A stretch of DNA of 64,000 bases from Thermodesulfobacteriota bacterium. Its GTDB lineage: Bacteria > Desulfobacterota > Desulfarculia > JACQYL01. The stretch lies in NCBI GenBank assembly GCA_963675595.2, contig CAXXLZ010000002.1, forward strand, positions 1,664,001-1,728,000. The letters run 5' to 3'. Positions 67-28,330 of the stretch are shown here, in pieces; position 1 is the stretch's first letter; the number at the start of each line of letters is the position of its first letter. The notes under the pieces are model-generated. The model was not told the origin of the DNA. It ran no database searches and saw nothing but the letters and a program-made list of their open reading frames with translations. A program made the position numbers and the translations under genes.

Positions 67-492
67 CTACTGGACACCAAGCACCCTGCCAACGTCCTCC
101 TGCTTTATAGGACCTTGTACATCCGTTAGATATGGGTTGTCCGGTTTGCCAAGGACAAAGCAAGGTACGTAATCGGGCAAACCGTTAAGAGCCGCAAAAA
201 GGGGAATATAGTCGTCAGACACAACGAACCATACTCCGCGGGGATAGACTAAAAGTTTTTGAAATATTTTTTGCTTGCCTTTCTCGAAGCTGTCCTTGAT
301 TGCAGCTTTTCCGGTCGGATGTAAGTCAGGACGATAGTCCATGTCGAAGGGCACAATCAGGGCGGTTGGAACAGCGGCAAAATAGATAGGCAGATTGCCC
401 TGCATGGCTTGTTCCATTAAACTTAGCAAAATTTCGTCCCTCTTCGGTGTTAATTCGGGCAACGTCTTGATTTCATGCTTTCTCACATACAT
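67..492 (-). CDS. Hypothetical protein, 141 aa; weak ParB/sulfiredoxin-like pattern
   Basis: ORF with purine-rich RBS (GGGAGAAG) downstream of the rebuilt UDG gene; LLVY...FVVSDD..PLFAAL..L...VPCFV loosely resembles the ParB/Srx core. Confidence 0.6.
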   Translation of the reverse strand: MYVRKHEIKTLPELTPKRDEILLSLMEQAMQGNLPIYFAAVPTALIVPFDMDYRPDLHPTGKAAIKDSFEKGKQKIFQKLLVYPRGVWFVVSDDYIPLFAALNGLPDYVPCFVLGKPDNPYLTDVQGPIKQEDVGRVLGVQ

Positions 493-920
493 TAATCTTC
501 TCCCTAAGCCGCCAAATTGAAAGGTTACCGATAAGCCATATAGAGCCTATCTCAAATCTTGCTCTTGAAGCCAATTGATTATGCTGATAATAGTATGTTC
601 CCCGACCGAGCAATGAACCCAAATTGCATAACGGGCTTCCCCAGTCGTTCTTAAGTCTTGTTCGGATAGGCCAAAATCCTTACAAAACGTTTCGATATGT
701 AAAAGGCCTTTTTTTTCCAATTTTCTAAGTTTATTGAATTGAAACCATTCTGGATTTGCAATGGGGTGAATATTGACTACTTCGTTATCCAGTTTCCATC
801 CTTTCTTGGTCTTTTGGACTCCCTTACTAGCAGCTCCCAGTTTAATGAGATGTTCCGTTACTTTTCTAACGACTATGTCGCGGAATGTGTCAATGAAAAT
901 GAGACACCTGTTTTCAGAAA

Positions 921-1916
921 TTAGACTCCCACGTCATCGCTCGACGGTTTGTTGATCCACGCGGCCTTGGGCAATTTTGGCGGCTGTGGCACCTTTCCTT
1001 TGAAACGGTTGGGGTTGCTCCGGAAGGCAGCCCGAAGAACTTGGCTGCGACACGCTACAATGTCCTGTGCGAGTCCGTAATGGAGCTGTTCGGGTGTGAC
1101 CAACCCGATGCCTGAATGCCGATGCTCGGGGTTGTACCAGGAGAAGAACTCCCGGCAGAAAGACCGGGCATCCTGGATTGATCCAAACCGTTTCGGAAAT
1201 TTCGGGCAATACTTGAGGGTTTTAAACTGCGCCTCCGAGTAGGGGTTATCATTGCTGACATAGGGTCGGCTGTGGGTCTTGGTCACTCCAATGTCTCCCA
1301 TGAACTCGGCTACGGACTTCGCTTTCATCGCCGGGCCTCGATCCGCATGGATGATGAGTTGGCCGGGCTTGATATCCTGCTTGAAGCACGTCTCTTCGAT
1401 GAGTTGCCTGGCCAAAGCGGCGTTTTCCCGATGGGCCACCATCCAGCCGACCACGTAGCGGCTGAAGATGTCCATGATCACGTAAAGATGGAAATAGGTC
1501 CACTTCACAGGCCCTTTTAGCTTCGTAATATCCCAGGACCACACTTTGTTGGGTCCGGTCGCAAGCAACTCGGGCTTTTTATAGACAGGCCGCCGCGCCT
1601 GCTTTCTTCGCTCTTTGACATCACCGGATTCCGCTTTGAGAATCCGGTACATGGTCCGGATAGAGCAGTAGTACTGTCCTTCATCGAGCAAGACGGCAAA
1701 GACCTGACGGGGAGCATCATCCTGAAAACGGGAGCTGTTAAGCAGATCGACCACGGTTTCCCGCTCCCGGGGGTTCAGAGCCAAGGGAGGCGCCGGCCGC
1801 GGTGTGCGGGCCGCCGCCGGCTTCAGGCGGCGATAGAAACTCGCACGGGGCAGGCCCATGGCTCCACATGCCTGCACGGTTCCTACCTCGGTGCGCAACT
1901 CCATCGCCGCGCTCAT
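921..1916 (-). CDS. IS3-family transposase OrfB (DDE)
   Basis: VWSWDIT...DIFSRYVVGW...HADRG...DNPYSEAQFKTLK integrase core. Confidence 0.95.
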   Translation of the reverse strand: MSAAMELRTEVGTVQACGAMGLPRASFYRRLKPAAARTPRPAPPLALNPRERETVVDLLNSSRFQDDAPRQVFAVLLDEGQYYCSIRTMYRILKAESGDVKERRKQARRPVYKKPELLATGPNKVWSWDITKLKGPVKWTYFHLYVIMDIFSRYVVGWMVAHRENAALARQLIEETCFKQDIKPGQLIIHADRGPAMKAKSVAEFMGDIGVTKTHSRPYVSNDNPYSEAQFKTLKYCPKFPKRFGSIQDARSFCREFFSWYNPEHRHSGIGLVTPEQLHYGLAQDIVACRSQVLRAAFRSNPNRFKGKVPQPPKLPKAAWINKPSSDDVGV

Positions 1917-2404
1917 GAACTGCTCCCGACGTCGTCCAGGTCCGGCTGAGCGATCCCCAGTATCTCCGAGATTTTTTTTTGAACTTCGATGATGGTTCGC
2001 GCCTGTTTCAGTTGATTCTCGAGACGGCGATTCTCCCTTTCAAGCCGGGCCACCCGCTCTGCCATAGGGTTCTTCTGCTTGGGCTTCCGGCCTCGCTTCT
2101 TTGGCCCAAGCGCACTCAACTGCCCCTGGTCACGTTGTCTACGCCATGTCGCCAGACTCGAAGAATACAGGCCTTCTCGCCGAAGTAGAGCCCCGAGCCG
2201 GCCCGGTTCAGTACACGCATCGGCTTCCTCCAGGATTCTCAGCTTGTACCGGGCTGTAAATCTGCGACGAGGCCTCTTCTCTGGAACCTCCGGGTCGGGG
2301 ACCGTGACGTGCTTCCCGATCGTGGTAACTCCGGTCGTCCTACGGACTCCCTCCGTTACCACGATTCCCTCATCCGGATTCTCTTTCTCTCTGTGCCTCA
2401 TCAT
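1913..2404 (-). CDS. IS3-family transposase OrfA
   Basis: RRRFTARYKLRIL HTH, leucine-zipper tail; A9 run at 1972-1980 links to the orfB frame by a -1 shift. Confidence 0.9.
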   Translation of the reverse strand: MMRHREKENPDEGIVVTEGVRRTTGVTTIGKHVTVPDPEVPEKRPRRRFTARYKLRILEEADACTEPGRLGALLRREGLYSSSLATWRRQRDQGQLSALGPKKRGRKPKQKNPMAERVARLERENRRLENQLKQARTIIEVQKKISEILGIAQPDLDDVGSSS

Positions 2405-3258
2405 GCTCCATCTCCTACCCGCCCTACACTAATTTATCAACGGGTAGGTGTCTCACTCTCATTGGCACAGAGGGTCGTATGAATCCATTTTGCTGTCCAT
2501 AGCCGGAACAGGCATATTTTTATTTTTTATAGAAGGCTCTCCGGTAGGTTTTGAAATGTCATAGCCGGTTACAGTGGATACTTTGTTTTTTGTACCAGGA
2601 TTGCCACCGATAATAGATTGAAGTGACGACTGGATAGATTCGATGATTTCGCCTTGATTCACCTTAAAATAAGCTCCAGTTGGATTTGGGCTTACAACCA
2701 TAGGAATACCATTCCAATTAATGATACGGCCTGCGTCTTTGCCTACGCGAATGCTTTTACCAGTCAACTCATTGATTGTTGGTTCCCCACAGGCAATGAT
2801 TACCTTTGGTGATTTGAACTTAATTTGCTGATAAAGAAAGCCTTTACAATTGTTTGTCTCTTCACTCGTGCTTTTACGGTTTTCTTTTGCAGCACACTTT
2901 ACAAGATTTGAAAAATAGACTCTATTAAAATCAAGGTCAAGCTTCTCAAGAAAGTATCCATAATAATTTTTTTTTACTCGTTCTTCATACTCAGCATCAG
3001 TTAGTTCAAGGCTTTCCCCCGCTGCTTGCCCAGGCCGCTCACCTATCACAAATATGTATTGATCAGGTCTGCTGACAGTTCCAAACCTACGCGTAAGGAT
3101 GATGTCATCAACATAATTCTTACATTTGGAGCATCCTGCAACTTCATGTCTAATTTGATCCATGGTAAGCACATTGGGTTTGTTCATGTGAACAGACTCC
3201 TTACTGTTGAGATTCTAAAATAGGTGTCTCCAAAGGGATCGAGTTGAAATAGTAACTA

Positions 3259-4269
3259 TCAGCGCTCCCTCATTCGTTGCGGGATTGCAGTCTCACTATC
3301 GTATAGCATTCGAGCTCCGGATAGATCGGCCAAAACCAGCTCGATCAATTCCGTGGGTTCCATTACCACTGCCTGAGGCCCCAAGCTTAGGACCCACTGC
3401 TTGATCTCCTCAAGACCGGCCACCTGGAAGGTCAAGTCGAGACGCCCGTCGGGCAGTTTCTCCGCTTTCTGGCTTTCATGCCAAATCTTCTCGCCGATGT
3501 ACCGGGCCCATTCGGCGGATATCCTGATCCGGACCGTGTAAAGGTCTCCCTGCATCACTTTGAAGCTGTGCTTCATGTAATCCTCCAGACTGAAGTCCGG
3601 AGGAATTTCAAAGTGTTCCTCGGTCAAGCGCAACATTCGGATTCGGTCGAGCACGAAGGTTCGGACCTCCTCTCGTAGATGACAATGCCCGATCAGGTAC
3701 AGGGTTCCATCGAAAAACCAGACTTTGTAGGGATCGACTTTTCTTAGGGCTTCCGTTTCACTGGTCAGCGACTTGTAGGCGATCTCCAAACGCAGCGACT
3801 CCAGGGCGGCCCGATTTACCTGGCTGAGAATCTCGCGAAACCTGCCGTATTCCTTGAAGGGTTTGATTCCCACTTGGAAGGTGGATTGGATGGTGTTCAA
3901 ATAGTTGAGTGCTTGGGGCGGCAGGGTGACTCGCACCTTCTTGAAGAGCGACTCCAAGGCTTCATAGAAAGGCGTCCCTCGGAATACTCGCACCAGGTCC
4001 GAGTACAGATGAAGGGACATCAGTTCGGTCACGGTAAAGGGTTGGGGTACCTTGAATTTGTAGGTATCGACGAAAAACCATCGATTGGAACCCTCAAATT
4101 TTTCATAATATAAAGGAAATCCCGCAGCCTGCAGCGCTTCGATATCCCGGTAGGCGGTGCGCAGGGATATCTCCTCCTGCTCGGCGATCTCGGCGATGGT
4201 CAAACCGTTCTTATCCGCTTCGATCGCCCGTAGAATTCTCCATTGTCTGGCCAGCTGGTCACCGCGCAT
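3259..4269 (-). CDS. HTH-WYL-WCX transcriptional regulator (WYL-B)
   Basis: N-terminal wHTH (SLRTAYRDIEALQAAGFP), RKVDPY...LYLIGHCHLREEVRTFVLDRI, C-terminal WVLSLGPQAVVMEP. Confidence 0.92.
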   Translation of the reverse strand: MRGDQLARQWRILRAIEADKNGLTIAEIAEQEEISLRTAYRDIEALQAAGFPLYYEKFEGSNRWFFVDTYKFKVPQPFTVTELMSLHLYSDLVRVFRGTPFYEALESLFKKVRVTLPPQALNYLNTIQSTFQVGIKPFKEYGRFREILSQVNRAALESLRLEIAYKSLTSETEALRKVDPYKVWFFDGTLYLIGHCHLREEVRTFVLDRIRMLRLTEEHFEIPPDFSLEDYMKHSFKVMQGDLYTVRIRISAEWARYIGEKIWHESQKAEKLPDGRLDLTFQVAGLEEIKQWVLSLGPQAVVMEPTELIELVLADLSGARMLYDSETAIPQRMRER

Positions 4270-4360
4270 CCGGACTTACCTATGCTGAAGTGAGAGGGGA
4301 ATCCTGTTCATGAGTCCTTTTATAGGTAGCAGAACCGCGTTTTGGGATCAACTTCGCAGA

Positions 4361-5350
4361 TTACTGCGCCCGTCGAGAACGTCTGTCGGAAAACCGATCG
4401 TAATGTCCCTTCCCGGAGTTGCCTGAACTCTCCTTTTTGAAAACCGAAAGGTGCAGAACTTTTTCATTGAAGGCCAAGGCGGCGCCGGTTAGGAAATCAG
4501 ATTCAAGCCTGAAATCGTGTCCCAAGGCTAGGGAGTTTCGGACTTCGGTGTCGGCGGTGCCAACGGATTCCATGAACGCTCTCGCCTTTTCGGCAGTGGC
4601 CTTGGAAGGGGACTCCTGCTCGAACCAGTCAATGGCGTCCAGAGCGTAACTGCGGATCAGCTTTTTGAAAAAGCCGGCAAACGTGTGCTTGAATCCGAAA
4701 CACTCGGCTCCCAGGATTTTGCCGTTGACGCCGAAGACGGCTCCCACCTGCGCGTCCGTCAAGCGGAATGCTCGTTCATATTCGGAAAGACGAGGTTCCT
4801 CCTTTTGATAGATGTCCGCCATGGCTCCGGTGGCGGACTCTGTGTGCAAACGTTCTCCTTTGGCGGATATCTGCTCCCATAAGGTGTTTTGATCGGACCG
4901 AAATCCTTGATCACGTCTCAGGCTTGTACGAACAGCTTGCTGATGTGCCCGCTTAAGGCTCGGGGGCATCATTTGTCCGCCGGAACGAAATCGCTCGGAT
5001 CGATAGCCCCATCGTCCCTGCTCTACGCAACTGACCGGGATCACGAGCTCGCAAGAGCCGTCTACCAGGAACGTCGAGTTGACGATTCGGTTCTGTTTGG
5101 CTCCATGAAGTTCTTCGCCCTCTACGATCAGCACTTGTTGCTTTCCCCGATTGATCAGTTTCAATTCCGGAACACTGCCCGAGGAGCTCACCTCGGTTAC
5201 CTCGATCTGCTCTCGTTCCAGAGCCTCGTCGAGGGTCAGGTACTCCGGTTCTCCGTTGTCGGGAGCCAGCAAGGGAAAGAGGGTCATGTTGAGATATGCC
5301 TGTTTTCTTCCCACCTTGACGTACGCCAGGTATTCACGAATCGGTTCCAT
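4361..5350 (-). CDS. ARPP-1/DUF6569-family protein
   Basis: YLTLDEAL...EVSSSGSVPELKLIN...GEELHGAKQNRIVN...IPVSCVEQGRW pattern; RBS GGAGG. Confidence 0.75.
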   Translation of the reverse strand: MEPIREYLAYVKVGRKQAYLNMTLFPLLAPDNGEPEYLTLDEALEREQIEVTEVSSSGSVPELKLINRGKQQVLIVEGEELHGAKQNRIVNSTFLVDGSCELVIPVSCVEQGRWGYRSERFRSGGQMMPPSLKRAHQQAVRTSLRRDQGFRSDQNTLWEQISAKGERLHTESATGAMADIYQKEEPRLSEYERAFRLTDAQVGAVFGVNGKILGAECFGFKHTFAGFFKKLIRSYALDAIDWFEQESPSKATAEKARAFMESVGTADTEVRNSLALGHDFRLESDFLTGAALAFNEKVLHLSVFKKESSGNSGKGHYDRFSDRRSRRAQ

Positions 5351-5373
5351 GGGTCACCTCCATTTTTTTCATA

Positions 5374-5408
5374 ATGGGTAACCCACGGGGTTGTCAGATC
5401 AGGACAAA
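5374..5408 (-). promoter_or_regulatory. Palindromic operator TTGTC-N7-GACAA (5391-5407) plus putative -10 for the ARPP-1/WYL-B unit
   Basis: Minus strand reads TTTGTC CTGATCT GACAAC CCCGTGGGT TACCCA ... GGAGG ... ATG. Confidence 0.55.
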
Positions 5409-5528
5409 AAGGAGAGCGAATTTTCTTGGGGTGATGATTTCGCGACGCGCCTTTCAGGTGATCGGCTGACACGGCGACCACGTGAAGTATCCCTCAAATT
5501 ATTTTCAGCTCCGGTAGAGAAGAATTCT

Positions 5529-5564
5529 ATCATTCCGAAATCTGGAATGATGTCGTGCTAATCT
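5529..5564 (+). promoter_or_regulatory. Palindromic operator 1 plus -10 box upstream of the GGCT gene
   Basis: ATCATTCC GAAATCT GGAATGAT; TAATCT lies 9 nt after GGAATG. Confidence 0.7.
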
Positions 5565-5628
5565 TTCCGAATGATGAGAAGCTGGTGTTGAGGCATGAAT
5601 TGGCAGTTAGCTGTTGGAGGGAGGCCGG

Positions 5629-6506
5629 ATGGACAATCTATATTTTGGATATGGTTCCAATCTGAACTTCGATGATCTGAAAAGGTGGTGTGCTCGGAAA
5701 AAAACGGCCCCATCGAGGGTGTGGTAGGGAAGGCCTTCTTGCCGGATTTTGGTCCTGTATACAATTATCTCTCCCGGACCCGTGGCGGTGGTGTTCTAAA
5801 TATCCGCGAGGAGATCGGGCAAGTTGTGCCGGGTGTGCTTTTCGAGATTCGGCCCGATGGGCGGGCAACGCTCGACCGAAAAGAAGGATACCCGAGTGTT
5901 TATACCCGGATCGAAATCACTTGTCTCCTGCAAGACGGCGATACGGCGGACGCCTTCACCTATATGGTCCGAGACATTCACTCCCGGGGGGGATTTGTAA
6001 AACCGTCGCCCGATTATGTCCAAATTGTAAGAAGGGGATTGAATGCTCACGGCGTCATCGAACACCTCCACAAGACGGCGGAAAAGGGAGCGAATACGCC
6101 TTACCTGATCGACCGGATATTCTGCTATGGGACTCTGATGTCCGGTGAATCCAGAGGAGCACTCCTGGAGACCTTCGGAAAGCCTGAAAAACGCCTCAAC
6201 GGAGTGACGCCCGGGCGTCTCTACGATCTGGGCGGATTCCCGGCAATGTCCATGAGTTCATCTTCTGAAGAAATCGTTCACGGAAAGCTCGTTCAAGTGA
6301 AGCGCATCGGGGACTTGCTCGCTTTCCTCGATGGAATCGAGGGCTTCCGCGGATATGGGTGTGAATCATCTCTGTTTGAGCGTCGGATCGTGCGGGTCCG
6401 AACCGAAGCTGGTGACGAATTCGCATGGGTGTATGTCATGGTCGACCCCGGAGACGCTCCAATGATCGTCGATGGGAAGTGGCGTGGAAGGTCCATCATC
6501 CTTTGA
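5629..6506 (+). pseudogene. Tandem gamma-glutamylcyclotransferase (GGCT/AIG2-like) protein, frameshifted near an A7 run
   Basis: RBS GGAGGGAGG plus ATG at 5629 encodes MDNLYFGYGSNL (GGCT start motif) but stops after 32 aa; the rest (5685-6506, LDRKEGYP, second domain IFCYGTL...LDGIEG) is in the -1 frame; A7 at 5698-5704. Confidence 0.8.
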
Positions 6507-6558
6507 ACCCAATCGTCGGCATAAGTTCCAGCGGTGCGGGTCCAGCCAAGGATAACGC

Positions 6559-7566
6559 CTACTCAGGATCACCATATAGGACGGACATATCCCTTATCGA
6601 CGAACGGATTTCAGACCTGAGATCTTCCGGTTCCAGGAGTTCGGCCTGGGAACCGAAACCTAATACCCAGGAAAGCACTTCGAGTCGGCTCGTGGCGGTG
6701 AATTCCAGAATGACGCCGCCGTCGGGTTGGGGAACCATTTGTTGTCCCTCGCTCCAGTTACGCTCCTTGATGTAAACGGCCGCACTGGGACGAAAGGCCA
6801 CCCGGACCTGAAAAGGCTCCCCATCGATGAGTCCGAAACGAATCGACTGCTCGTCCAGGAAGTCCTTCTTCTCGTATTTGTGTTCCGTCGTTTCCGCGGA
6901 AACCAACCGGTGGAGGGCCAGAGTCATTTTGTGCGGGTCGTCGGGAACGGCGTCTTCCCATAAATACCAGGCCAGGACGTAGACGCATTCACCGGAGAGC
7001 ATCAAACGAAAAGGGGCCACGTAGTGGGTGGCCGGTTGTTCCTGGCCCGGCTTGGCATAACGGATTTTGCAGACCTGATGATCCTTCATGGCGGCGAGGA
7101 GTCGCTGGAAGATGTCCTGCTTCCCGGAGTAATCGATGGCTCCTTTGGGCCGGGCCCATGCGCATTTTTCCGGAAGCTCGTCCAATACGGCATCATCGGG
7201 AAGCAGCGCAGTCGCCTTTCTGATCGTGTCGCTGATCCCGTTTCGCAGGGAATCGGGAAGAAGATTCCAAACCAAGTCCCGGCAAAGCAGCAGATGATGA
7301 ATTTGTTCAGGGTCCAACGTCACGTTGAACGCTCCACGGGGTGGCCGAGCTCGGTAATACTTTTCCCGCCCTTGCGTCGAAGTTTCGATCTTAACGTTGC
7401 GGATCAGTTGGAGCTGTTCCACATATCGAATCACGGTCTGTTTCGAACATCTAAGGTCGCCGGCCAGCTTGCTCAATGAATACTTCCGCCTGCTGAACAG
7501 GAGGAGACAAAAAAGACCTAAGGCCTTCATGGCTGGTGTTGAATAGGGGTCCTTTTTCTCTGGCAT
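6559..7566 (-). CDS. HTH-WYL-WCX transcriptional regulator (WYL-A)
   Basis: HTH (LSKLAGDLRCSKQTVIRY), VAPFRL..CVYVLAW..TLALHRL, C-terminal WVLGFGSQAELLEPEDLR. Confidence 0.88.
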   Translation of the reverse strand: MPEKKDPYSTPAMKALGLFCLLLFSRRKYSLSKLAGDLRCSKQTVIRYVEQLQLIRNVKIETSTQGREKYYRARPPRGAFNVTLDPEQIHHLLLCRDLVWNLLPDSLRNGISDTIRKATALLPDDAVLDELPEKCAWARPKGAIDYSGKQDIFQRLLAAMKDHQVCKIRYAKPGQEQPATHYVAPFRLMLSGECVYVLAWYLWEDAVPDDPHKMTLALHRLVSAETTEHKYEKKDFLDEQSIRFGLIDGEPFQVRVAFRPSAAVYIKERNWSEGQQMVPQPDGGVILEFTATSRLEVLSWVLGFGSQAELLEPEDLRSEIRSSIRDMSVLYGDPE

Positions 7567-7718
7567 GGGGCTTTATCCTCCGAAAGTCTGAGATTCTCGT
7601 ATCTGTAGGGTGCCGGGACTATTATTCTGTGGTATCCTGCCTTATTTCAACACGCGTCATACCAAAAGAATAGAACGTTCGGTTCGTCCGCCGGGACCCC
7701 AAACGTTCCAGCTCACAC

Positions 7719-10001
7719 CTACCCACGTGCGGGATTCGACGGAAGCTCTTGGCGCCGCAGATCGGGCGCCTGCGAAGCGGGCCGGAAGCCGACCTCCGTT
7801 GATCCCTTTTGGTATCGTTTGATTCGGGATTCGCTTTCCAGCGCTTCGACCAAGATCGAATGGCTCTCCGGTTTATGGAAACGGAACCGGTCCCTGACCA
7901 CGGCGAAGTCTCCCGGAGCCAGGTCTCGAATCGTTCGTATCCGGGCGATGTCTTCATCGCTGATGAGACCAACCACCAGCGGCTCCAGCATTCGTCGATA
8001 AAACAGCAGATTACCGGACGGCTCCAAGAAATCGAAGCCGACCTTGTGGGTGAATCGGCGAACGGCGGCCTCGTCCACATCCAACAAACGGTTGGTGGTG
8101 CAGATCAGAATTCCTCGGTATGCTTCCATGCTGGAAAGCAGTTCATTGGTGAAGCTCACTTCCCAGGATCGTTGGGCCCGTGACCGGGGAAACAACAGGC
8201 TGTCCGCTTCGTCGATGAGCAGAACCGCCTCGTCGTCTTCCGCACGCCTGAAAGCCTCCCTGATTCGTCTTTCAGTCATGCCCACATAAGGGTCCAGAAT
8301 ATCGCCGGCCCTGCGGACAACCAGGTCGCGTTCCAGCACTCGGGCCAGATGGTGCGCCAGGGCTGTTTTCCCGGTTCCGGGAGGACCATGGAACAGCATT
8401 CGCAGCCCACCCATCACCTCATCGCTCTGATTCAAGCTGCAGCAGGTGAAGGCTCGGGCGTCTTCCATGAGCCGCTCGAAGTCCTGATCCGTATGGAGTC
8501 CTTCCAAAGAGTATTCGGTCTCCGACTTGCGATGGGTCTTGGAGGAAGCATCGGTCGGACCCATGGCCATATAGGCATCAAGGGCCAGGCGAACCGCTTT
8601 TCCGAAATCCTGAGGATTTTCGTCACAGGCGAGCTTGGCCTTCTTGACCGACATGTCGATGACCCCCGCACTCACTTCGAACCTTGAGGCCAATTCCATC
8701 ACATCCGCTTCCTCGATCAAGTCCGAACAATCGTTTCGGGTGAGGATCGAACGCCAAAGACCTTCCCTCTGGGTTCGGTTGAATGGACGGAATCGGATGC
8801 TGAAGGCCATGCGACGTTTGATCGTATCGGGAAGGGATTCGACGTTGTTCACGATCCAGATCATGCGAATGCCCGGACGTTCCAGGAGCTGGTTCAACCT
8901 GCCTTTTTTGTTTTCACGACCCGAGAGGAACCAGGGAACCTCCGTTCCCAGGATTTCGTCCGCTTCGTCCACTACGATGATTGACCCTTCCTTGCTTTGG
9001 TTCGTGAAATTAAGACAGGTGAGAACAGCGTTGAGCTTTGCTGAGGATTCCTTGCCTTTTTCGGCGTAAATCTCATATGCGGGGGTCGGAAGTTCGCTTG
9101 CCAGCCCCCTGGCATAGGAGGTCTTCCCCGTCCCCGAGGGGCCGTAAAGGAGAACATGCGTTGGGGAGTCGGTCCGCCGGGAAAGCAAGCCCATGACATG
9201 AGCCGTTATCTCCTGTGGAACCATATGGTTGGAGAGAGGAATGTCACTCGGAGGAAGCGGTCGGTACCCTTTGCGCCCGATCTCGTGTTGACCGCACTTC
9301 TGCAACAGAATCAAGTAGTCCTGTTCCATCTTGATCCAGTATCCGTTCGACCATATCTCAACGATTTCAAGTTGAGAAAGCCTTGAAAAGACCATGGTGT
9401 CAAGGTGCGATGTCGATACGTTTAAAGCATGGGCAAGGTACTTACGCCCACTGAACCGGAGGCATTCCAGGTGTCTCTCGAAATAGTCCTCAGCCGCCTC
9501 CCAGGCTTGGCACATGAACAGAATCCTGCAAAGTTCGGTTTCCTCGGGTGTCAGGTCGAAGAGCTTTCCGAATTCATGGAACCCGCCTTCAAGGCTGGAC
9601 CCGCTAGACGAGCACAGAAGACCGTCCTTCTCCAGGAGTTTCTCCTGAAGGAGCTTCAAAAGCTTCAATTTGGAGCGCCTGGAACCATGTGTTGAGACCT
9701 TCACCAACAGATCGAAGTCAAGCTCGTCAAAATAGGACATATCGTAGGATTCTCTCGTCAGAACTTCCAGTTCTTTCTGATTCAGGACGCGATACTTGAC
9801 CATCCATTCCTTTATCTCTTCCGGGCTCGGTTCGAGAAGCTTGAAAGCAAATTCCAGCGTCTCCCGGTCCAATCGTCCCGATCCGTTCAAGATTCGCAGC
9901 AGATAGAGAATCGCCTTCTTTCGAAGGAAGCATTCATCCGAGCCGAGGGTTTCCACTCCTTCGTGGAGAACGGTTCTTCTTTTCCTGCGGGTAGGCGCCA
10001 T
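7719..10001 (-). CDS. Double-ring AAA+ ATPase with long N-terminal domain
   Basis: Two Walker A/B sets: GPSGTGKT/IIVVDEAD and GPPGTGKT/LLIDEAD; DEAAVRRF arginine-finger region. Confidence 0.9.
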   Translation of the reverse strand: MAPTRRKRRTVLHEGVETLGSDECFLRKKAILYLLRILNGSGRLDRETLEFAFKLLEPSPEEIKEWMVKYRVLNQKELEVLTRESYDMSYFDELDFDLLVKVSTHGSRRSKLKLLKLLQEKLLEKDGLLCSSSGSSLEGGFHEFGKLFDLTPEETELCRILFMCQAWEAAEDYFERHLECLRFSGRKYLAHALNVSTSHLDTMVFSRLSQLEIVEIWSNGYWIKMEQDYLILLQKCGQHEIGRKGYRPLPPSDIPLSNHMVPQEITAHVMGLLSRRTDSPTHVLLYGPSGTGKTSYARGLASELPTPAYEIYAEKGKESSAKLNAVLTCLNFTNQSKEGSIIVVDEADEILGTEVPWFLSGRENKKGRLNQLLERPGIRMIWIVNNVESLPDTIKRRMAFSIRFRPFNRTQREGLWRSILTRNDCSDLIEEADVMELASRFEVSAGVIDMSVKKAKLACDENPQDFGKAVRLALDAYMAMGPTDASSKTHRKSETEYSLEGLHTDQDFERLMEDARAFTCCSLNQSDEVMGGLRMLFHGPPGTGKTALAHHLARVLERDLVVRRAGDILDPYVGMTERRIREAFRRAEDDEAVLLIDEADSLLFPRSRAQRSWEVSFTNELLSSMEAYRGILICTTNRLLDVDEAAVRRFTHKVGFDFLEPSGNLLFYRRMLEPLVVGLISDEDIARIRTIRDLAPGDFAVVRDRFRFHKPESHSILVEALESESRIKRYQKGSTEVGFRPASQAPDLRRQELPSNPARG

Positions 10002-12127: not shown

Positions 12128-13420
12128 ATGACAATTACATGGGGTATTCTGGGTCCCGAATTCTTGCCGAATGCGCGCCGTACGAGAACCCTTGGACTGG
12201 GTGCGTCAGTGCGTTCATTTAATGATCTTGCCGTTCCGGGTCTGGGTGGTGTGTGGTATGGCAAGCAATTGCTGCTGGCGTCACTCGGTGTCGCCGTAGC
12301 GGAGGAGGCACGCAGCCGGGGGGCAAAAGTACAGAATATTGAAGTGGCCAACGCGATTGAAGCGTTGGCCTGTTGGCTGGCCTTCAAGAGCAACGGCTGG
12401 AGTCGCGATGATCGTTTGCGGGGGAATACCAAGTTGCACGGCAAAGACGATTTCAGCTTCCGGCGTGTGCGGCAGCGAAACTTCTACATCACGCAACCTA
12501 TGCGAATGGCGACTGTCCAGGCATTACCGGCCCTTGGCTTTGTCGAATCCGACAGTGCGCGCTTCAACGCATTTCGTTGTTCGGTTCCAGGAAAGGCCTT
12601 TATCGAACAAGCTACTGAGGACTATCGTCCGTATAACAGGTCAGTTATTGATCATCTAACGTCTTGGGTGCAGATGAAAGTTGATCGTGTCGATACGGAT
12701 GCACTTCAAAATGTCTTGTCTCCACTGAATCGACTTCCCGGAAAAGCAATACCGTTGCTTCGCGAAAGAATAAAGCAAGGTGGGAATGAAAGGCATGAAG
12801 ACAAGGAACGCCGATGCGATTCACTAAACTGGGTCGAGGCACTCCGAGTAAAAAGCCTGGATAGGCAGACGTGGGAGCACCGACCAAGAGAAGTTTCGGA
12901 GAAGCATTGGCATGACCTCCAGGCGGGGGCTTTGTTCTTTGAAACACGCGAATCCGCTATTGCGGTACTCGATGCAGCAGAAGCCCACATCGGAAACCAG
13001 ACAATCAGTCAGTCTTGTTGCTTGGCGCATATTCCGGAAGTACTGAACTCTTCGATTGAAAAACTGAAATCAACGGCAAATGAGTATTTGATGTCTAAAC
13101 ACACGGATGAAGAAGCCAACAAATTCTGTCGCGAGTGCGTAGATGACGACCCATCCACTATCTTGCGGACTTTGGTGAAACGAGACGGTCATGTGTTGCG
13201 TTTGGTGGGTGAAGACGTAAAGCCGGGGCCGGCATTTCGCGGTCCGATAATTCAGACCCGATCCGAGGAAGGCGAGGATCAAGACACGCCGCAAGCAATG
13301 GAAATTCCAGTGCCAGAGAGCATTTCCTACCGTGTGCGCAATCTATATCTCTTGAATCTCGATATGCACGGTAAACTGGATGGATGGCTGAAACCATATC
13401 CGAACGGGGGTGAAGCGTGA
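12128..13420 (+). CDS. Hypothetical protein, DUF6361-like N-terminus (Azaca-like component)
   Basis: RTLGLGASVRSFNDLAVPG resembles the LGxG..R..F.D...PG start of DUF6361; GTGA overlap with the next gene. Confidence 0.55.
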   Translation: MTITWGILGPEFLPNARRTRTLGLGASVRSFNDLAVPGLGGVWYGKQLLLASLGVAVAEEARSRGAKVQNIEVANAIEALACWLAFKSNGWSRDDRLRGNTKLHGKDDFSFRRVRQRNFYITQPMRMATVQALPALGFVESDSARFNAFRCSVPGKAFIEQATEDYRPYNRSVIDHLTSWVQMKVDRVDTDALQNVLSPLNRLPGKAIPLLRERIKQGGNERHEDKERRCDSLNWVEALRVKSLDRQTWEHRPREVSEKHWHDLQAGALFFETRESAIAVLDAAEAHIGNQTISQSCCLAHIPEVLNSSIEKLKSTANEYLMSKHTDEEANKFCRECVDDDPSTILRTLVKRDGHVLRLVGEDVKPGPAFRGPIIQTRSEEGEDQDTPQAMEIPVPESISYRVRNLYLLNLDMHGKLDGWLKPYPNGGEA

Positions 13421-21088: not shown

Positions 21089-24000
21089 CTACCCAGCCGC
21101 CGCAGAGGCGGGTCGCTTCGCGTATTCTTCACGCCAGTTTTTTAGCGAATTCATGTCTTCCAGAATATCCTCTGGCTTCGGCAATTCCACTGGTGATTCT
21201 GTAGGCTGCGAGTGTTCAAACCCAGAGTATTTGGTCATGAGCGAATCAAGAAGATTACAATCCGTCTCTTTCAACTTGGCCAGATCCTTGAGCTTCAACG
21301 TATGGACCGGTCGTTGGAATCTTTGAACCACCCCGCACAGCAGATCATTTTCAATAGAGCGCTCCACCAACGTCCTGAAGTCGCTGCATATCGACTTCAG
21401 CAGGATTTCGGCATGTTCAAATTTGTCGCTCTCACTTGCCTTCTTAGCATCCTGATACCGCTGATTCATGAGTGTGTTCAGCGCGGATTTGATGTCACTC
21501 TGTGAAAGTGGAATGGGGGCTGGCTCTCCGGTACCCCAGTCCGCAGAGCGAATGCTCACCACATCGGGCTTGATGGTCTTTTTCTCGGCAAAATGCCTGA
21601 CCGTTCCCAGCAAGGACAGACGGTGAGTAAAGACAATGACCTGTTTATCCTGAGACAACTCGATCAGCCTTTGAACCACGGCCTCCTCGTAGCTTTGGTC
21701 GAGCGAGGATATTGGATCGTCGAAGATAAACGGGGCCTGGTTACTCTTGCCGGTGACGTCGGCCAAAAATGCCGCAATGGAAACGATCCGATTTTCTCCC
21801 TCGCTCAGAACATCGGCGAGCCCATTCTGAGAGGCCCCCCGGAGCTGGAGCTTATGAAGGACGCGGCCCTTGGAGACTTTTGATTTCACGAGCTCAACCT
21901 TCACCTGAGACGCGCCGAGGGTCTTGAGTTCCGCCTTGAATCTTTGCACGAACGCATCCGTGATCAAGGCTTCTGCCAGCTCCCCTTTTTTCTGGGACAG
22001 GGCTTTGGTATTGGTCAAATTCTTGGCTTCCTGAATCTGGCTCAGTAACTTCAATCGGGTGACTTCTTCATCAATGGCGGCGCGGTGCTCAGACAACCAC
22101 TTTCTTGCCTGCAGGCTGTTTAGCTTTTTTTTGATCTCCTCTCGATTGTCGCTTTTGGCGTCTTCGTCATATTTTGCCGCGAGTTCACCGAGGCTTTTCG
22201 TCTGGGCGTTGGCTTCTTCGATCCATTTAGGTGTGAGCAGAGGGTCGGGAATGGCTTCTTCGGAATCGATCCCAGGGAGCAGGTCTTTTCTGGCCTGCAA
22301 TTGAGCAAAGAAATCCGTCACTTGGCTGGCGACTTCATCCTGTGGAATGCCAGCCGCATCGATACGTGTCTTCAGCGTCTCCGATGTCGGTAGCACCTCG
22401 ATAGTTTGACCGGCGGCCTCGTATTCCTTGGCCGCATCCGTTGCGGCTTTCTGCATTTCGCCCTTCATGAAGCTTTCGAAGGAGATCAATCGGTCCTTGG
22501 CCTCCTGAGTCAAGGTCTGATGGCACAGGACACAACGGGAACCATCAGAGACATTCGGGTACTCGGCTTCTTTGTAGGCAGCCGATGCGGAGTAGTTCCG
22601 GGCCGCTTCCCAAAGCTCTTTCCAAACATCAGACCCGATGCCTTCCAACTCGCTGCCGGAGAACACCTTTTCCGCCGCCGTATCTGCCGCTGCCTTCTTG
22701 AGGATCAACTTCTTTTTGGCAGCAATGATCCGGCGATAATTCTCATCCGATAATTGCTTAAGATACTTCTGGGCGGAATGTGTCAATGAAAATGAGACAC
22801 CTGTTTTCAGAAATTAGACTCTCACGTCATCGCTCGACGGTTTGTTGATCCACGCGGCCTTGGGCAATTTTGGCGGCTGTGGCACCTTTCCTTTGAAACG
22901 GTTGGGGTTGCTCCGGAAGGCAGCCCGAAGAACTTGGCTGCGACACGCTACAATGTCCTGGGCGAGTCCGTAATGGAGCTGTTCGGGTGTGACCAACCCG
23001 ATGCCTGAATGCCGATGCTCGGGGTTGTACCAGGAGAAGAACTCCCGGCAGAAAGACCGGGCATCCTGGATTGATCCAAACCGTTTCGGGAATTTCGGGC
23101 AATACTTGAGGGTTTTAAACTGCGCCTCCGAGTAGGGGTTATCATTGCTGACATAGGGTCGGCTGTGGGTCTTGGTCACTCCAAGGTCTCCCATGAACTC
23201 GGCTACGGACTTCGCTTTCATCGCCGGGCCTCGATCCGCATGGATGATGAGTTGGCCGGACTTGATATCCTGCTTGAAGCACGTCTCTTCGATGAGTTGC
23301 CTGGCCAAAGCGGCGCTTTCCCGATGGGCCACCATCCAGCCGACCACGTAGCGGCTGAAGATGTCCATGATCACGTAAAGATGGAAATAGGTCCACTTCA
23401 CAGGCCCTTTTAGCTTCGTAATATCCCAGGACCACACTTTGTTGGGTCCGGTCGCAAGCAACTCGGGCTTTTTATAGACAGGCCGCCGCGCCTGCTTTCT
23501 TCGCTCTTTGACATCACCGGATTCCGCTTTGAGAATCCGGTACATGGTCCGGATAGAGCAGTAGTACTGTCCTTCATCGAGCAAGACGGCAAAGACCTGA
23601 CGGGGAGCATCATCCTGAAAACGGGAGCTGTTAAGCAGATCGACCACGGTTTCCCGCTCCTGGGGGTTCAGAGCCAAGGGAGGCGCCGGCCGAGGTGTGC
23701 GGGCCGCCGCCGGCTTCAGGCGGCGATAGAAACTCGCACGGGGCAGGCCCATGGCTCCACATGCCTGCACGGTTCCCACCTCGGTGCGCAGCTCCATCGC
23801 CGCGCTCATGAACTGCTCCCGTCGTCGTCCAGGTCCGGCTGAGCGATCCCCAGTATCTCCGAGATTTTTTTTTGAACTTCGATGATGGTTCGCGCCTGTT
23901 TCAGTTGATTCTCGAGACGGCGGTTCTCCCTTTCAAGCCGGGCCACCCGCTCTGCCATAGGGTTCTTCTGCTTGGGCTTCCGGCCTCGCTTCTTTGGCCC

Positions 24001-25262
24001 AAGCGCCCTCAACTGCCCCTGGTCACGTTGTCTACGCCATGTCGCCAGACTCGAAGAATACAGGCCTTCTCGCCGAAGTAGAGCCCCGAGCCGGCCCGGT
24101 TCAGTACACGCATCGGCTTCCTCCAGGATTCTCAGCTTGTACCGGGCTGTAAATCTGCGACGAGGCTTCTTCTCTGGAACCTCCGGGTCGGGGACCGTGA
24201 CGTGCTTCCCGATCGTGGTAACTCCGGTCGTCCTACGGACTCCCTCCGTTACCACGATTCCCTCATCCGGATTCTCTTTCTCTCTGTGCCTCATCATGCT
24301 CCATCTCCTACCCGCCCTACACTAATTTATCAACGGGTAGGTGTCTCACTCTCATTGGCACAGAGGGGGGCATCCTGAACCAGAGTGTCGATATGCTGTT
24401 TCTGTTTCCTCAGCTGCTTCGCTTTTTCCGCTGGTGCCTGTTCGGTAAGGCGCTGCTGCAGCGTTTGCATCTCGGTCTCGTCAGCGCTGCTAAATGTGCA
24501 ATGCTTGTCGATGTCCTGGATGCTGGTCTTGGCGCTGATGGTTTCGTACCAGAGGCCTTCTGGAGTGACCTTTTTGTCAGCTGGGATATTCGGTTTTTTG
24601 GATTGGTGTCGATTAGCCTCGGCGTCCAGAGCTGATGCCACCTTCTCACAAGCGAGGGTGAGCGAGCTGAAAAACGATAATACCGGCGGCTCGTAGCTCA
24701 CCTCATCTTCGCTACCGACAAAGACCTTGCCAAACGAGGTGTCGAAAATATCAACGCTGTTTAGGTCATCGCAGATACCTTGCCCTGACCAGGTATGACT
24801 CTTCGGAATGCCGTCCTGCTCAAACGAAATGCAAGCTTTCTGTACGGCAGAGCCGGGTTTATAGACATTGCGGTGAAGGGTACCCGTCTCGCGGGCACCG
24901 CATACATGTTTAAGGAGTCTGACGTATCCGGATTTGCCTGACCCATTCTTGCCATAAACAATCGTGATGTTGCCTTTGCCAAACTTAAGTGGCTTTTTCG
25001 GAGCAAGAGCGTTAATTCCTTCGACATCACTGATTGAACATAAACGCAAGGTGCCTGCAGCGCCCTGGGAGAACGCGGTAGCTGGAAAAGAACAGGTCAC
25101 TTTTGGCAACTTTCCGTCTGCTTCCTGCCAGCACAGGGTTGCGAGCTCAGAGACTTCTTTGTCAGTCAGCTCAGACTGCTGAAGCAGCCGAGCAGCCCCA
25201 ATCTGGAGCCACTGGGGACGCTCTGAAAACCATTTGGTCAGCAATGCCGAGATATCGCTCAT
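21089..25262 (-). pseudogene. RloC-like ABC/SMC ATPase (zinc hook, possible HEPN-like tail) split by IS3 copy 2
   Basis: GKNGSGKS, CVLC hook, LSEGE, FDDPISSLD, VFTH; removing 22774-24367 plus one GGG restores ...LVQDA-QKYLK... in frame, 858 aa; ATGA overlap with res. Confidence 0.75.
22774..24367 (-). mobile_element. IS3-family insertion sequence, copy 2 (1594 bp); orfB 22814-23809, orfA 23806-24297
   Basis: Near-identical to copy 1; 3-bp duplication GGG (22771-22773, 24368-24370). Confidence 0.95.
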
Positions 25263-28200
25263 GCTCTTGCCCCTCCCATACCAACAATCTCCATCAGCTT
25301 CCCGTAGCTGGTCACCACGTCATACTTTACGTGTTCGGGATCAAGCTTGCGATTTAGTTCTTCGAAGAACTTGCGGGCGCATTCGATTTTGGTTTGCTCG
25401 ATTGCCCGCAACTCCATGCTGGACATGGAGCCTTTGGTCTCGGCGACGAAATAGATGTACTTGACCGTGCCTTCCTTGAAGGAAATGGCCCAGTCCGGGT
25501 TGTAGTCGCCGACGGGGGTCGGAATCAGGAATCCTCGGGGGAGCTTCGCATAAACGACCACCTCGGTGCTGGTATCCAGTTCCTTCACAAAATCCCGTTC
25601 AACTTTGGAGTCGGTGATCGCGTAGTCGTAGATATGGTTCTTCAGCTTCTCGCTGGCCTTGGTGAAGTCCTGCTTGCTCTGGCCTGCGGTGAAAATGTCG
25701 ATATCATGGTGCTCTGCAATCCCGTCATAGCTCAGGCGCTCGATGATGATCGTTGCCTTTTGCTCGTTGATCAGACGTGTCGCCTCAGCCAAAAAATGTT
25801 CCGGGTTCTGTTTGAACTGTTTGAATACGCCCGGCTGAATGCCGCCCAGCATTTCGGCGATGGTCTTTCGGGTCAGCTGTGTGTTCTCTGCCAGCTTGCC
25901 CAATAAGTCATACCTGACCATCGAGTGAATCGAGGCGTTATACTCCTCCGTAGCGGTTTCCCGGACTTCAAATCCCCGGCCGGCTTTTAATTGATCATAC
26001 GTTGCCTGATCGACCTGCTGGCCCCCCTGGATGGTGTATTGCAAAGGAGTCACCCTTAGCTCTTTGTCGATTGCGCGGATGCTGTTTCGAATGAGTTCAC
26101 TGGAATCGAATTCAACACGGTAGACCGCCCTCTGATTGATCCGGTTCCAGAGCGCCTTGAACTCTTTTTTCTCGAAGTTGGCATTCAGCGGGTTGGTCTT
26201 CGGCTTGCGGTCATCACCCACGTCGGGCAGCTGGGACTCGCTGAACACGCTGTCGATCAGGCTGAAAATGTGTTCCGCGTGAGGGGCGAGCTCGGGCGGA
26301 AGCGCAGCCAACGTTCCGCCGGCTTTTGCCTCGTGGTAGGCTTCGGCAACCTGATCCGCGTCATCGGTATAGTCGTTCTTGAGAAGGTATTTGTATATCT
26401 GCTTGGCCATGACCGGGGTAATTTCCACTGTCCCAGCTTCGGTGGTGATGACCTTCCCGGTGAAGTAAGCCTCGTCCGCCTTGCGGGGGCGAGCCGAGAG
26501 GGAGTCGCTGATCTCACGCTGAAGATTTCCGACAAAGTCCCTGTAGCTCTCGCTCGCGACAACGGTCAGGATGTTCACGTCGTGGACCGTTGCCGGGTTG
26601 TCCATGCGATCCCCGAGCTGGTTGACACTAATCCGCAATCCCCGGCCGACCTCCTGGCGGCGAGAGATGGTGTTGTCGCTGTGCTTGAGCATACACATGA
26701 CGAAGACATTGGGATTGTCCCAGCCTTCCCGCAGGGCGGAGTGGGAGAAAATGAACCGGACCGGTTCAGCAAAAGAGAGCAGCCTCTCTTTATCCTTCAG
26801 GATCAGATCATAGGCATCCACGTCATCGGAAAGCCCGGCGTCTTCTCCACGCGTCTTGAAGCTCGGATCGGTGAGCCTCTTGGTCTTCTTGTCGATGGAG
26901 AAGTAACCGTTGTGGGTACGGCCGACGGGAATTCCTTTCAGATACTCCTGAAACGCGCCTCCATCCAAAGGTAGCAGGCTCGAATATTCGTCTTTGAGCT
27001 GTTCGTACTCCTCTTCGAAGATTCGGGCATATTCGCCCTGCTCATCGGCCTGCCCGTAGTCACGGTATTTGGCGACTTCATCAATAAAGAACAGGGACAG
27101 CACCTTGATGCCCTGGGCAAAGAGAACCTGCTCCTTCTCAAGGTGAGCCCTGATCGCCTCCCGGATCTGAATCCGCCGGATAGCCATTTCAGTGATGTCG
27201 CCGGTTGCATCACCCGCACTCAGAACATGGCCATTGGTGAACTCCACCGTGTCATTGTTCGCGTCAATCTGGGCGAGGACAAAGCCGCGATATTGGTCCA
27301 GCTCGTTTGATTCAACGAAAATATCTCTGCCGCGTTCCAGGCGTTTGACGATCCGCTTGATCCCGCCGCCCTGGCGCACTTCCATTTCGATTCGGGCAAC
27401 CGGCGCCTTCTTGGAAACTTCGATGGATTCCAGGTAGAGATAGGCGTTGGTGCCTGCCAGGCCCTTGACGGCGATGCCGCGCACCGCGATTTTTTTCACC
27501 AACTTCTGGTTGTAGGCGTCCAGGGCGTCGAGGCGGTGGATCTTGTTGTGCGTGGTCCGGTGGGTGGCCGAGTAGCGCAGGATCATCAGCGGCTTGAACT
27601 TGGATAACGCATCCAGCGTCTTTTTGCCCTCCATCTTCTGAGGTTCATCCAGAATCAGGATGGGGCGGTTGCTGCTGATCACATCGATAGGCTTGCGCGA
27701 TTGGAAGTCGTCCAACTCGTCATAGATGCGGCGGTTATCCTTCCCTGTTGCGTTGAACGCCTGGATATTGATGACCATGACGTTGACGCCCGCATCGGAG
27801 GAAAAGCTTTCTAGGTGGTGCAGCTGCTTGGAGTTGTAGGCAAAAAAGCGGGCCTTCTTCCCGTAGCTCTCGGTGAAGTGTTCGGCGGTAATCTCCAGTG
27901 ATTTGAGCACGCCCTCACGGATGGCAATGCTGGGCACCACCACGATGAACTTGGTCCAGCCGTAACGCTTGTTCATCTCGAAGATGCTCTTGATATAGCA
28001 GTAAGTCTTGCCGGTGCCGGTTTCCATCTCCACATCGAGGTTGATCTTGCACCCGGCGCTTGTCGCCAGTTTGTCGGACAACGGCAGGTTCTGGCGTCGC
28101 TGCACGGCATGGATGTTTCCAATCAACTGAGTATCGGTCAGTTGTACGTCGGCGTTCTTGAAACCCTCATATTCCAGAAAACTGGTTTGCTGTTGACCGG

Positions 28201-28330
28201 ATTCATTCTTTATCACGCCAGGGTCAATCCGATAGGCAATGCCGGAGGTACTGATCTGCCCCGCAAAGCAGTCCACAACGGTTTCCACCGCGCTGGTCTG
28301 GTAGGGCTGGACTTTAAACTTCAGTTTCAT
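25259..28330 (-). CDS. res: Type III restriction endonuclease Res subunit
   Basis: [35 protein letters not shown]-terminal YNPDW...AETK nuclease. Confidence 0.93.

Follow-up and report, generated by a model that had tools for sequence, protein, structure and literature searches.

A family-4-like uracil-DNA glycosylase gene split by an IS3-like element, its intact twin and an orphan C-terminal domain in a Thermodesulfobacteriota genome

The stretch of DNA considered here, which we call the window, comprises 64,000 nucleotides of a Thermodesulfobacteriota bacterium (assembly GCA_963675595.2, contig CAXXLZ010000002.1, positions 1,664,001-1,728,000), and our subject is a minus-strand gene at its positions 547..3187 that is found today as two pieces parted by an insertion sequence (IS). 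Before the IS landed, this locus encoded a single protein of 347 amino acids (aa) in three parts, namely a domain with the uracil-DNA glycosylase (UDG) fold, a linker, and an orphan C-terminal domain (CTD). The interrupted gene is made up as follows.

2477..3187, minus strand: N-terminal piece, codons 1-237, with the family-4-like UDG domain (residues 1-200) and most of the disordered linker
881..2474, minus strand: IS3-like insertion sequence of 1594 bp, with orfA, orfB and imperfect inverted repeats
547..879, minus strand: C-terminal piece, codons 238-347 and the stop codon, encoding the orphan CTD; the first start codon within it is a TTG at 720
878..880: left copy of the target-site duplication, TCG
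2475..2477: right copy of the target-site duplication, TCG, which is single in the uninterrupted paralogue and matches the overlap at L024 9634-9637

Once the IS and one copy of the repeat are removed, 3187..2477 (237 codons) and 879..547 (110 codons and the stop) join into a frame of 1044 nt that encodes 347 aa. An earlier note on this DNA had proposed that excision of the IS would give an open reading frame (ORF) of this length, and the proposal is borne out by a second locus of the same genome, which a protein search placed at G000:C2:4715924-4716634 (with 96% identity across residues 1-237 and an open frame of 353 codons). There, in the record that we call L024, an uninterrupted 347-aa ORF runs from 8924 to 9967, and across the point of insertion it reads ...AMDSRMDSYDIVVRKVTEHL... 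(...MDSYDIVVRKV...). Since the intact copy has the same junction sequence, the joined frame is not a matter of chance. By blastn, positions -5800..880 of the window (negative values lie outside it) and 2474..6489 align at 96.2-96.3% identity to L024 16314..9634 and 9637..5615, respectively. In the intact copy these blocks abut with an overlap of 3-4 nt, as expected of a simple insertion that duplicates 3 bp of its target.

The two gene copies differ at 27 of 1044 nt (97.4% DNA identity), with 15 residue changes, and the window copy has neither a stop codon nor a frameshift, the IS aside. The ratio of non-synonymous to synonymous differences between them (pN/pS) is about 0.39 overall, 0.27 in the UDG part and 0.45 in the C-terminal part, on small counts of 16 non-synonymous and 11 synonymous changes. 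They belong to a segmental duplication of about 17 kb at 95-97% identity, which extends from about -5800 to 11516 in window coordinates and corresponds to G000:C2:4705694-4723314. Its genes are AddB-like, UvrD-like, a 141-aa gene, the UDG-CTD gene, WYL, ARPP-1, GGACT, a second WYL, and an AAA ATPase; the second copy (L024) alone holds an extra DUF2779/Cas4-like gene of 528 aa between GGACT and the second WYL gene.

The inserted element has the layout of an IS3 element, with orfA followed by an overlapping orfB.

1913..2404, minus strand: orfA, 163 aa, with an HTH_Tnp_1 domain, from the ORF list and Pfam
921..1916, minus strand: orfB, 331 aa, with rve and rve_3 domains (Pfam) that form the integrase core; overlaps orfA
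886-909 and 2446-2469: imperfect inverted repeats of 24 nt

The repeats are 88% complementary, start with TGTG and end with CACA, and lie 5 nt inside the ends common to all copies. The genome holds nine full-length copies at 99-100% identity, one that is truncated at its 5′ end and one in two pieces, and a comparison of flanks found the ends cggaaTGTG...CACAgaggg in all nine full-length copies. Because these share sequence for 5 nt beyond the inverted repeats on each side, we place the borders of the element at 881..2474; public-run contigs that carry other copies part from the window exactly at 880/881 and 2474-2476, and a search with the second copy in the window returned matches of 1594 bp to the others. 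A perfect 3-bp direct repeat surrounds six of the nine full copies, and this short target duplication and the many identical copies are likewise those of IS3 elements. A run of nine adenines (A9, coding strand, 1971-1980) lies within the end of orfA. Four contig-type runs of one study, mapped to the locus with patchy cover, gave neither a joint spanning the IS nor an allele free of it.

Two further copies of the element merit a brief description. The one at window 22774-24367, with the target repeat GGG, splits another minus-strand gene (21089-25262), and its excision gives an open frame of 877 aa whose C-terminal piece (21089..22786) is an AAA_13/SMC_N ATPase; this gene adjoins a type III restriction-modification pair (Res 25259..28330, Mod 28343..30232). 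The copy in two pieces, at G000:C2:1564665-1567550, matches the query at 1-1111 and 1107-1584 with about 1.3 kb between the two, and so is itself interrupted.

The N-terminal domain (residues 1-200) has the alpha/beta fold of the UDG superfamily. It scores 37.9 bits against Pfam UDG (PF03167; cut-off 24.3, E 2.4e-9), and in a scan of the whole genome both gene copies reached 38-39 bits. A profile of four rows matched the structures 4zbx (Sulfolobus tokodaii) and 1l9g (Thermotoga maritima) in the PDB at E 1.7e-12 each, 1ui0 (Thermus thermophilus) at 2.6e-8, and UdgX at about 2e-3. A model of the N-terminal part alone was poor, with a predicted local distance difference test (pLDDT) value of 59, and we replaced it by an AlphaFold model from 18 rows, in which pLDDT is 70-94 over most of residues 40-195. 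With this model, Foldseek found 36 PDB matches at E<=0.001, among them 1l9g at 1.3e-8.

Assignments to narrower families did not hold. The family-4 models of NCBIfam (TIGR00758, NF040953) gave 49.9 bits where 125.3 are required and, for the archaeal type 4, 55.3 where 250 are required, while the UdgX family (TIGR03914) gave 29.5 bits against a cut-off of 189.95. The Brig1 family (NF047634) had no match to the protein at E<=0.1, nor in the genome as a whole at E<=1.

The residues of the active site were compared in a MAFFT alignment, cut to the UDG domain, of 12 sequences: the two copies of this genome, their close relatives P0003, P0004 and L025, and seven canonical family-4 enzymes, two of which are from the same genome. 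All 12 share the four cysteines of the presumed iron-sulphur (Fe-S) cluster, probably 4Fe-4S (C19 and C22 in a CxxC at 19-22, C98, and C114), and likewise Glu50, Pro52 and Gly53, in agreement with the earlier note, which had read the family-4 cysteines and a GExPG motif from the letters. Other positions set the clade apart. Motif A is GERPG (residues 49-53), where family 4 has GE[AG]PG, and its Arg51 is invariant in the clade; the loop after motif A is five residues longer, with no PFVG and with an invariant Glu-Tyr-Glu (EYE); and CAAK or CAAE stands where the canonical enzymes have CRPP. Motif B, which the earlier note had given as SPNPTG in place of HP, is indeed SPNP (residues 166-169) against [YF]HP[AS], and the alignments concur in placing Asn168 in the His column; five of six clade sequences keep SPNP, and the sixth, P0005, diverges before this motif.

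In the S. tokodaii enzyme, Phe55 is reported to stack on the flipped base and Asn82 to read its Watson-Crick face, and the same account of Brig1, an antiviral member of the superfamily, gives Tyr121 and Glu147 at these two places (PMC11078745). An HMMER alignment to the S. tokodaii UDG pairs our Asn94 with Asn82, Tyr67 with Phe55, and Asn168 with the His of motif B. The equivalence of Tyr67 and Phe55 is likely but not certain, since MAFFT places the loop differently, and Tyr67 may be an aromatic residue that stacks on the base. The statement that the protein lacks the PFVG stacking motif is thus right as to the letters, but an invariant Tyr67 aligns with the stacking Phe55. On these alignments, the clade keeps the uracil-type Asn and, it appears, the aromatic platform, and what has changed is the leaving-group His and the part of the pocket wall that faces C5. 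From the kept Asn94 and Tyr67, the lengthening of the loop by five residues and the Asn in place of His in motif B, we infer that the domain may be active as a glycosylase on a base of the uracil or thymine type that bears a bulky 5-substituent, rather than on a cytosine derivative. The earlier suggestion of a non-uracil base in general does not stand in that form, given that the kept Asn94 points to a base of the uracil or thymine type.

The changes in the pocket could also be those of a protein that no longer cuts. The domain would then be a non-catalytic reader, which only binds to a modified or damaged base that has been flipped out, and the CTD, with or without the product of the neighbouring 141-aa gene or the WYL regulator described below, would pass the signal on as a sensor. 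The replacement of the motif-B His by Asn, the loss of PFVG and the Arg at the third position of motif A would all suit such a protein, as would the fusion of the UDG domain to an orphan domain that also occurs alone and the presence next to the gene of a ligand-sensing WYL regulator. Nevertheless, Glu50, Asn94 and Tyr67 are invariant across the clade, as an active pocket needs, and no effector domain is evident. Moreover, TDG/MUG enzymes are active without the His of motif B, Asn-Pro in this motif being the state of MUG from E. coli, an active enzyme. A non-catalytic reader therefore appears improbable, and the distribution of the CTD, to which we now turn, bears on it as well.

Residues 201-237 form a low-complexity linker of about 37 residues, modelled as disordered with a pLDDT of about 30, and residues 238-347 form the CTD. 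An exhaustive phmmer search of 1.84 billion representative proteins found two relatives of the CTD only, P0006 (116 aa, 50% identity) and P0007 (51% identity), whose 199 aa include a tail that is unrelated, and the hits of a profile search across 5.8 billion clusters were again these two. A fused UDG domain is absent from both, and they start 8-9 residues before the equivalent of residue 238. Because the two free-standing relatives begin so close to this residue, the IS can be said to have hit exactly the boundary between linker and CTD. The earlier note had described an unannotated C-terminal domain, and the intact paralogue and the two homologues at about 50% identity confirm that it is real.

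The CTD is known from four sequences only, among which 44 columns are invariant, including seven Lys/Arg and four Trp. It has no significant match in Pfam, NCBIfam, PADLOC, PHROGs or the PDB, searched with the single sequence and with the four-row profile; there was no usable Atlas match and none among the longer proteins searched, and its profile matched none of 94 other genomes of the class. The model shows a long helix, a beta hairpin and five short helices, with pLDDT of 50-72. A fold search with the full-length model recovered the UDG domain and its family-4 matches, and none of the rows listed covered the CTD. We suggest with low confidence that the CTD may be a nucleic-acid-binding or partner-binding module.

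Close relatives of the UDG domain are very few. Among 5.8 billion clusters it has only three close relatives, P0003 (193 aa, 55% identity), P0004 (215 aa) and P0005 (188 aa), to which the metagenome locus L025 (203 aa, 46%) adds a fourth. All four end at about residue 193-200 of the 347-aa protein, so the fusion is not a trait of the UDG clade but particular to this genome. The earlier note had counted homologues that end before the junction as evidence against its reading, and the four close UDG relatives examined (193, 215, 188 and 203 aa) do stop short of it; the fused form is upheld by the intact paralogue instead. The fusion is therefore real and lineage-specific. Since the four close relatives have no CTD, the UDG domain must work alone, which is a further point against a reader that depends on the CTD to pass on its signal.

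Searches of other collections gave the same picture of rarity. One genome from each of 185,579 species held no locus for the UDG domain or the CTD, viral contigs held none for the UDG domain, the CTD or the 141-aa protein, and metagenome contigs held two loci only, L025 and L026. Matches in plasmids (27 records, all at <=30.1% identity) and phages (13 records, all at <=30.8%) cover <=51% of the query without reaching the CTD, and they are ordinary family-4 UDGs and UDG domains fused to polymerases. In the phylum, 136 of 400 other genomes match at E<=1e-10, all at <=33% identity, and what they carry is the ordinary family-4 enzyme.

These counts are relevant to the question of whether the gene encodes an accessory repair glycosylase, that is, a third and divergent UDG for the cell's own DNA (acting on uracil, hypoxanthine, oxidised pyrimidines or mismatches) that lies in an island by an accident of horizontal transfer. 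The protein keeps the Fe-S cysteines, Glu50 and Asn94 of the family-4 repair enzymes, and the Asn-Pro of its motif B is also the state found in MUG-type repair enzymes. Even the antiviral enzymes Brig1 and Brig3 are reported to keep residual activity on uracil (bioRxiv 10.64898/2026.02.25.707755), which is compatible with a repair role. However, two canonical family-4 UDGs, at 136 and 118 bits and with GE[GA]PG, RPFVG and YHPA, are already encoded in the genome, so the divergent gene is an extra rather than a housekeeping one. The clade is also extremely rare and patchy, whereas a general repair enzyme would be expected to be widespread, and the GC content of the gene is 14 points under that of its neighbours. 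We thus regard a repair role as unlikely.

The IS has not necessarily silenced the window copy. The allele as it stands today has an ORF at 2459..3187 of 242 aa, whose last five residues come from the target-site duplication and the IS and which has kept its start together with the complete UDG domain and the linker; a GGAG lies 9 nt before the ATG of the gene, as seen in the twin. The C-terminal piece of this copy is probably lost, as 547-879 read from a start codon gives an ORF of at most 57 aa. In the intact copy, none of the three ATG codons just before the CTD has an evident Shine-Dalgarno sequence. Given that a product of 242 aa with UDG domain and linker is near the size of the stand-alone relatives (188-215 aa), the window copy may be de-fused rather than dead.

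The gene stands out from its surroundings by composition. The GC content of both pieces is 0.39, against 0.53-0.55 in the neighbouring genes and 0.529 in the window, and an HTH-WYL-WCX gene lies 71 bp upstream, which agrees with the earlier description of an AT-rich gene that follows a WYL gene. The gene of the relative at L025 has a GC content of 0.554, against 0.612 for its contig. The nearest neighbours in the window are the following.

67..492, minus strand: 141-aa orphan gene, 54 bp downstream of the glycosylase gene and on the same strand; a possible accessory gene
3259..4269, minus strand: HTH_11-WYL-WCX regulator ("WYL-B"), 71 bp upstream of the glycosylase gene (HTH_11 E 3.5e-9, WYL 1.1e-19, WCX 5.9e-19; PADLOC WYL E 1.1e-41)
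4361..5350, minus strand: ARPP-1 domain protein (PF20208, E 9.1e-98), in the duplicated cassette
5685..6506, plus strand: GGACT/AIG2-like protein with two such domains, in the duplicated cassette

A regulator with helix-turn-helix (HTH), WYL and WCX domains that adjoins an effector is the arrangement of WYL-regulated modules of the BrxR/CapW-like kind, and this arrangement is found here. The ARPP-1 and GGACT/AIG2 genes diverge from each other between two WYL/WCX regulators (window 4361-6506); beyond GGACT come the second WYL/WCX protein and an IetA-like double AAA ATPase, and farther out an AAA_13 ATPase and the type III restriction-modification pair. A plus-strand block of three genes at window 12128-18052 encodes an unknown protein of 430 aa, a PLD-like protein of 601 aa (ZacB-like) and an SNF2 helicase of 885 aa (PDC-M27C/DrmD/ZacC-like), and on the opposite side of the locus lie a UvrD-type helicase-nuclease and a PD-(D/E)XK protein. 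Operator-like palindromes near the WYL and UDG genes were limited to a 9-nt repeat over the UDG start codon. As for ARPP-1, it is named for an association with ADP-ribosyl glycohydrolases, and such hydrolases have been reported beside Brig1 and Brig3 (PMC11078745; bioRxiv 10.64898/2026.02.25.707755), but the link is only nominal; a literature search on ARPP-1 and on UDG with WYL gave nothing useful.

The 141-aa gene raises the question of whether two genes act together. They might form a selfish or abortive module in which the glycosylase would be toxic to host DNA and the 141-aa orphan would be an inhibitor or immunity protein, or else a nuclease that completes the attack. Their genes, on one strand with 54 bp between them, occur only as a pair, in both copies; the 141-aa protein has two copies in the genome that are 100% identical, and none of 400 further genomes in the phylum was found to have it. 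PADLOC gives a weak match of this protein to SduA/DUF4263 (E 6.2e-7), the Atlas offers leads to ParB_N-like and VapB-like clusters, and Brig3, for its part, is reported to work with a small accessory protein from its operon (bioRxiv 10.64898/2026.02.25.707755). Such a module is nevertheless very improbable, as the 141-aa gene has a GC content of 0.467 where the glycosylase gene has 0.39, its product has no match in Pfam (E<=0.1), NCBIfam, PHROGs or the PDB, no homologue was seen at the loci of the relatives, and the IS left the UDG ORF intact with no visible compensating change. A complex prediction for the full-length protein and the 141-aa protein (score 0.00, mark 0.32) is no evidence either way.

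The locus L025 offers the one other neighbourhood for comparison. It contains a metallophosphatase, a 112-aa coiled coil, the C-terminal half of an ATPase (233 aa, with weak matches to GajA/mad3) and an IS200-like transposase, and it has no WYL gene, no CTD homologue and no 141-aa homologue. The genes at L025 160-2145 look like a split SbcCD-like set. Thus, there is no conserved gene partnership, and what recurs is only a mobile, defence-type setting.

Taking these observations together, we favour a horizontally acquired, Brig-like defence glycosylase that would excise a modified pyrimidine from invading DNA and leave abasic sites, a reading whose chances we consider evenly balanced. It draws on the low GC content, the rarity, the WYL-regulator neighbour and the defence-type genes nearby. 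The UDG domain would flip out a base, most likely a 5-substituted base of the uracil or thymine type in phage DNA, and would then cut the glycosidic bond, so that the resulting abasic sites would block phage replication. The CTD, with its many invariant Lys, Arg, Trp and Phe residues and a weakly HTH-like tail, would probably add DNA binding or partner binding, and the WYL regulator encoded upstream might control expression. It is also conceivable that a family-4-derived Fe-S glycosylase was recruited for immunity, captured a free-standing orphan domain and forms, with the 141-aa gene and WYL, a new multi-part antiphage system directed at a hypermodified base of the thymine or uracil type, but this more elaborate version is clearly unlikely.

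Several points weigh against a Brig-like defence glycosylase. Catalysis is not assured, since the His of motif B and the Arg-Pro-Pro after the third cysteine are lost and Arg51 is present in motif A, and no member of the clade has a known activity, substrate or phage phenotype. No PADLOC 2023 model matches the glycosylase, nor does the Brig1 family. With regard to the CTD, its model is of moderate confidence only (pLDDT 50-72), the HTH hint is weak and below the cut-off (HTH_36 at E 0.06-0.1, SelB wing at 0.1), the pI of the entire domain in this genome is 8.0, so that it is not basic, and all 50 rows of the wide fold search, together with the Foldseek rows listed, cover the UDG domain only (residues 3-204). 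As one of two copies tolerates the IS, the full-length form is not essential, at least when the gene is duplicated. A scan for promoters and terminators gave nothing above chance, and no conserved system can be claimed, given that the sole other neighbourhood, at L025, shares nothing with the locus in the window.

UDG-fold genes in defence islands are an already known kind. Enzymes of the UDG superfamily that act against phages with modified DNA have been described only from 2024 on, Brig1 in that year and Brig2 and Brig3 in 2025-26, and in the reports concerned each new clade has so far come with a new substrate. The present case stands apart by a clade that can still be recognised as of the Fe-S, family-4 type, by the fusion to an orphan domain, and by a natural pair of fused and de-fused genes in one genome. 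Of the clades that we found in a defence setting, this one is the closest to the classical Fe-S family-4 repair enzymes, and since it is so near to family 4, with the cysteines, the Glu and the Asn kept and the His, PFVG and RPP changed, it may document an early step of repurposing. The locus also provides a first context for an orphan domain known from four sequences, and the intact and the IS-split copies are a natural pair for dissecting what the CTD adds. If the protein were an ordinary uracil glycosylase, the outcome would be a correction of annotation only, with one gene and an IS instead of two fragments.

Compared with known systems, the protein resembles the family-4 UDGs (UDGa; 1L9G, 1UI0, 4ZBX) in the positions of the four cysteines, in the Glu-x-Pro-Gly of motif A, and in the Asn of the xNxVKC strand. 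It differs from them by GERPG, by the EYE loop without PFVG, by CAAK and SPNP, and by an identity to the canonical enzymes of <=33%; it also has a linker and an orphan CTD and is island-borne. Unlike UdgX of Mycobacterium smegmatis (6AIL), which keeps the context of the motif-B His and acts by covalent cross-linking, nothing here suggests cross-linking. The enzymes of family 2 (MUG/TDG), whose motif A is GINPG, have no Fe-S cysteines and match the fold less well than do those of family 4, the Glu of which is kept here.

Parallels are also found in Brig1, Brig2 and Brig3, which are described as antiviral glycosylases of the UDG superfamily (PMC11078745; bioRxiv 10.1101/2025.10.29.685425; bioRxiv 10.64898/2026.02.25.707755) and with which our protein shares the superfamily fold and a single gene in A/T-rich, mobile, defence-type surroundings. 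Relatives of Brig2 are likewise reported to sit in A/T-rich, mobile regions (bioRxiv 10.1101/2025.10.29.685425). According to the published account of Brig1, its best structural match is the S. tokodaii family-4 enzyme (PMC11078745), which is among the best matches of our protein too, and in both a Tyr is proposed as the stacking residue. Our protein differs in that Brig1 is reported to use Glu147 for a cytosine-type base, whereas the Asn is kept here, and in that homologues of Brig1 were annotated as hypothetical proteins, whereas our protein scores as Pfam UDG and keeps the Fe-S cysteines. Finally, a small gene adjoins the glycosylase gene, as it does in the reported operon of Brig3.

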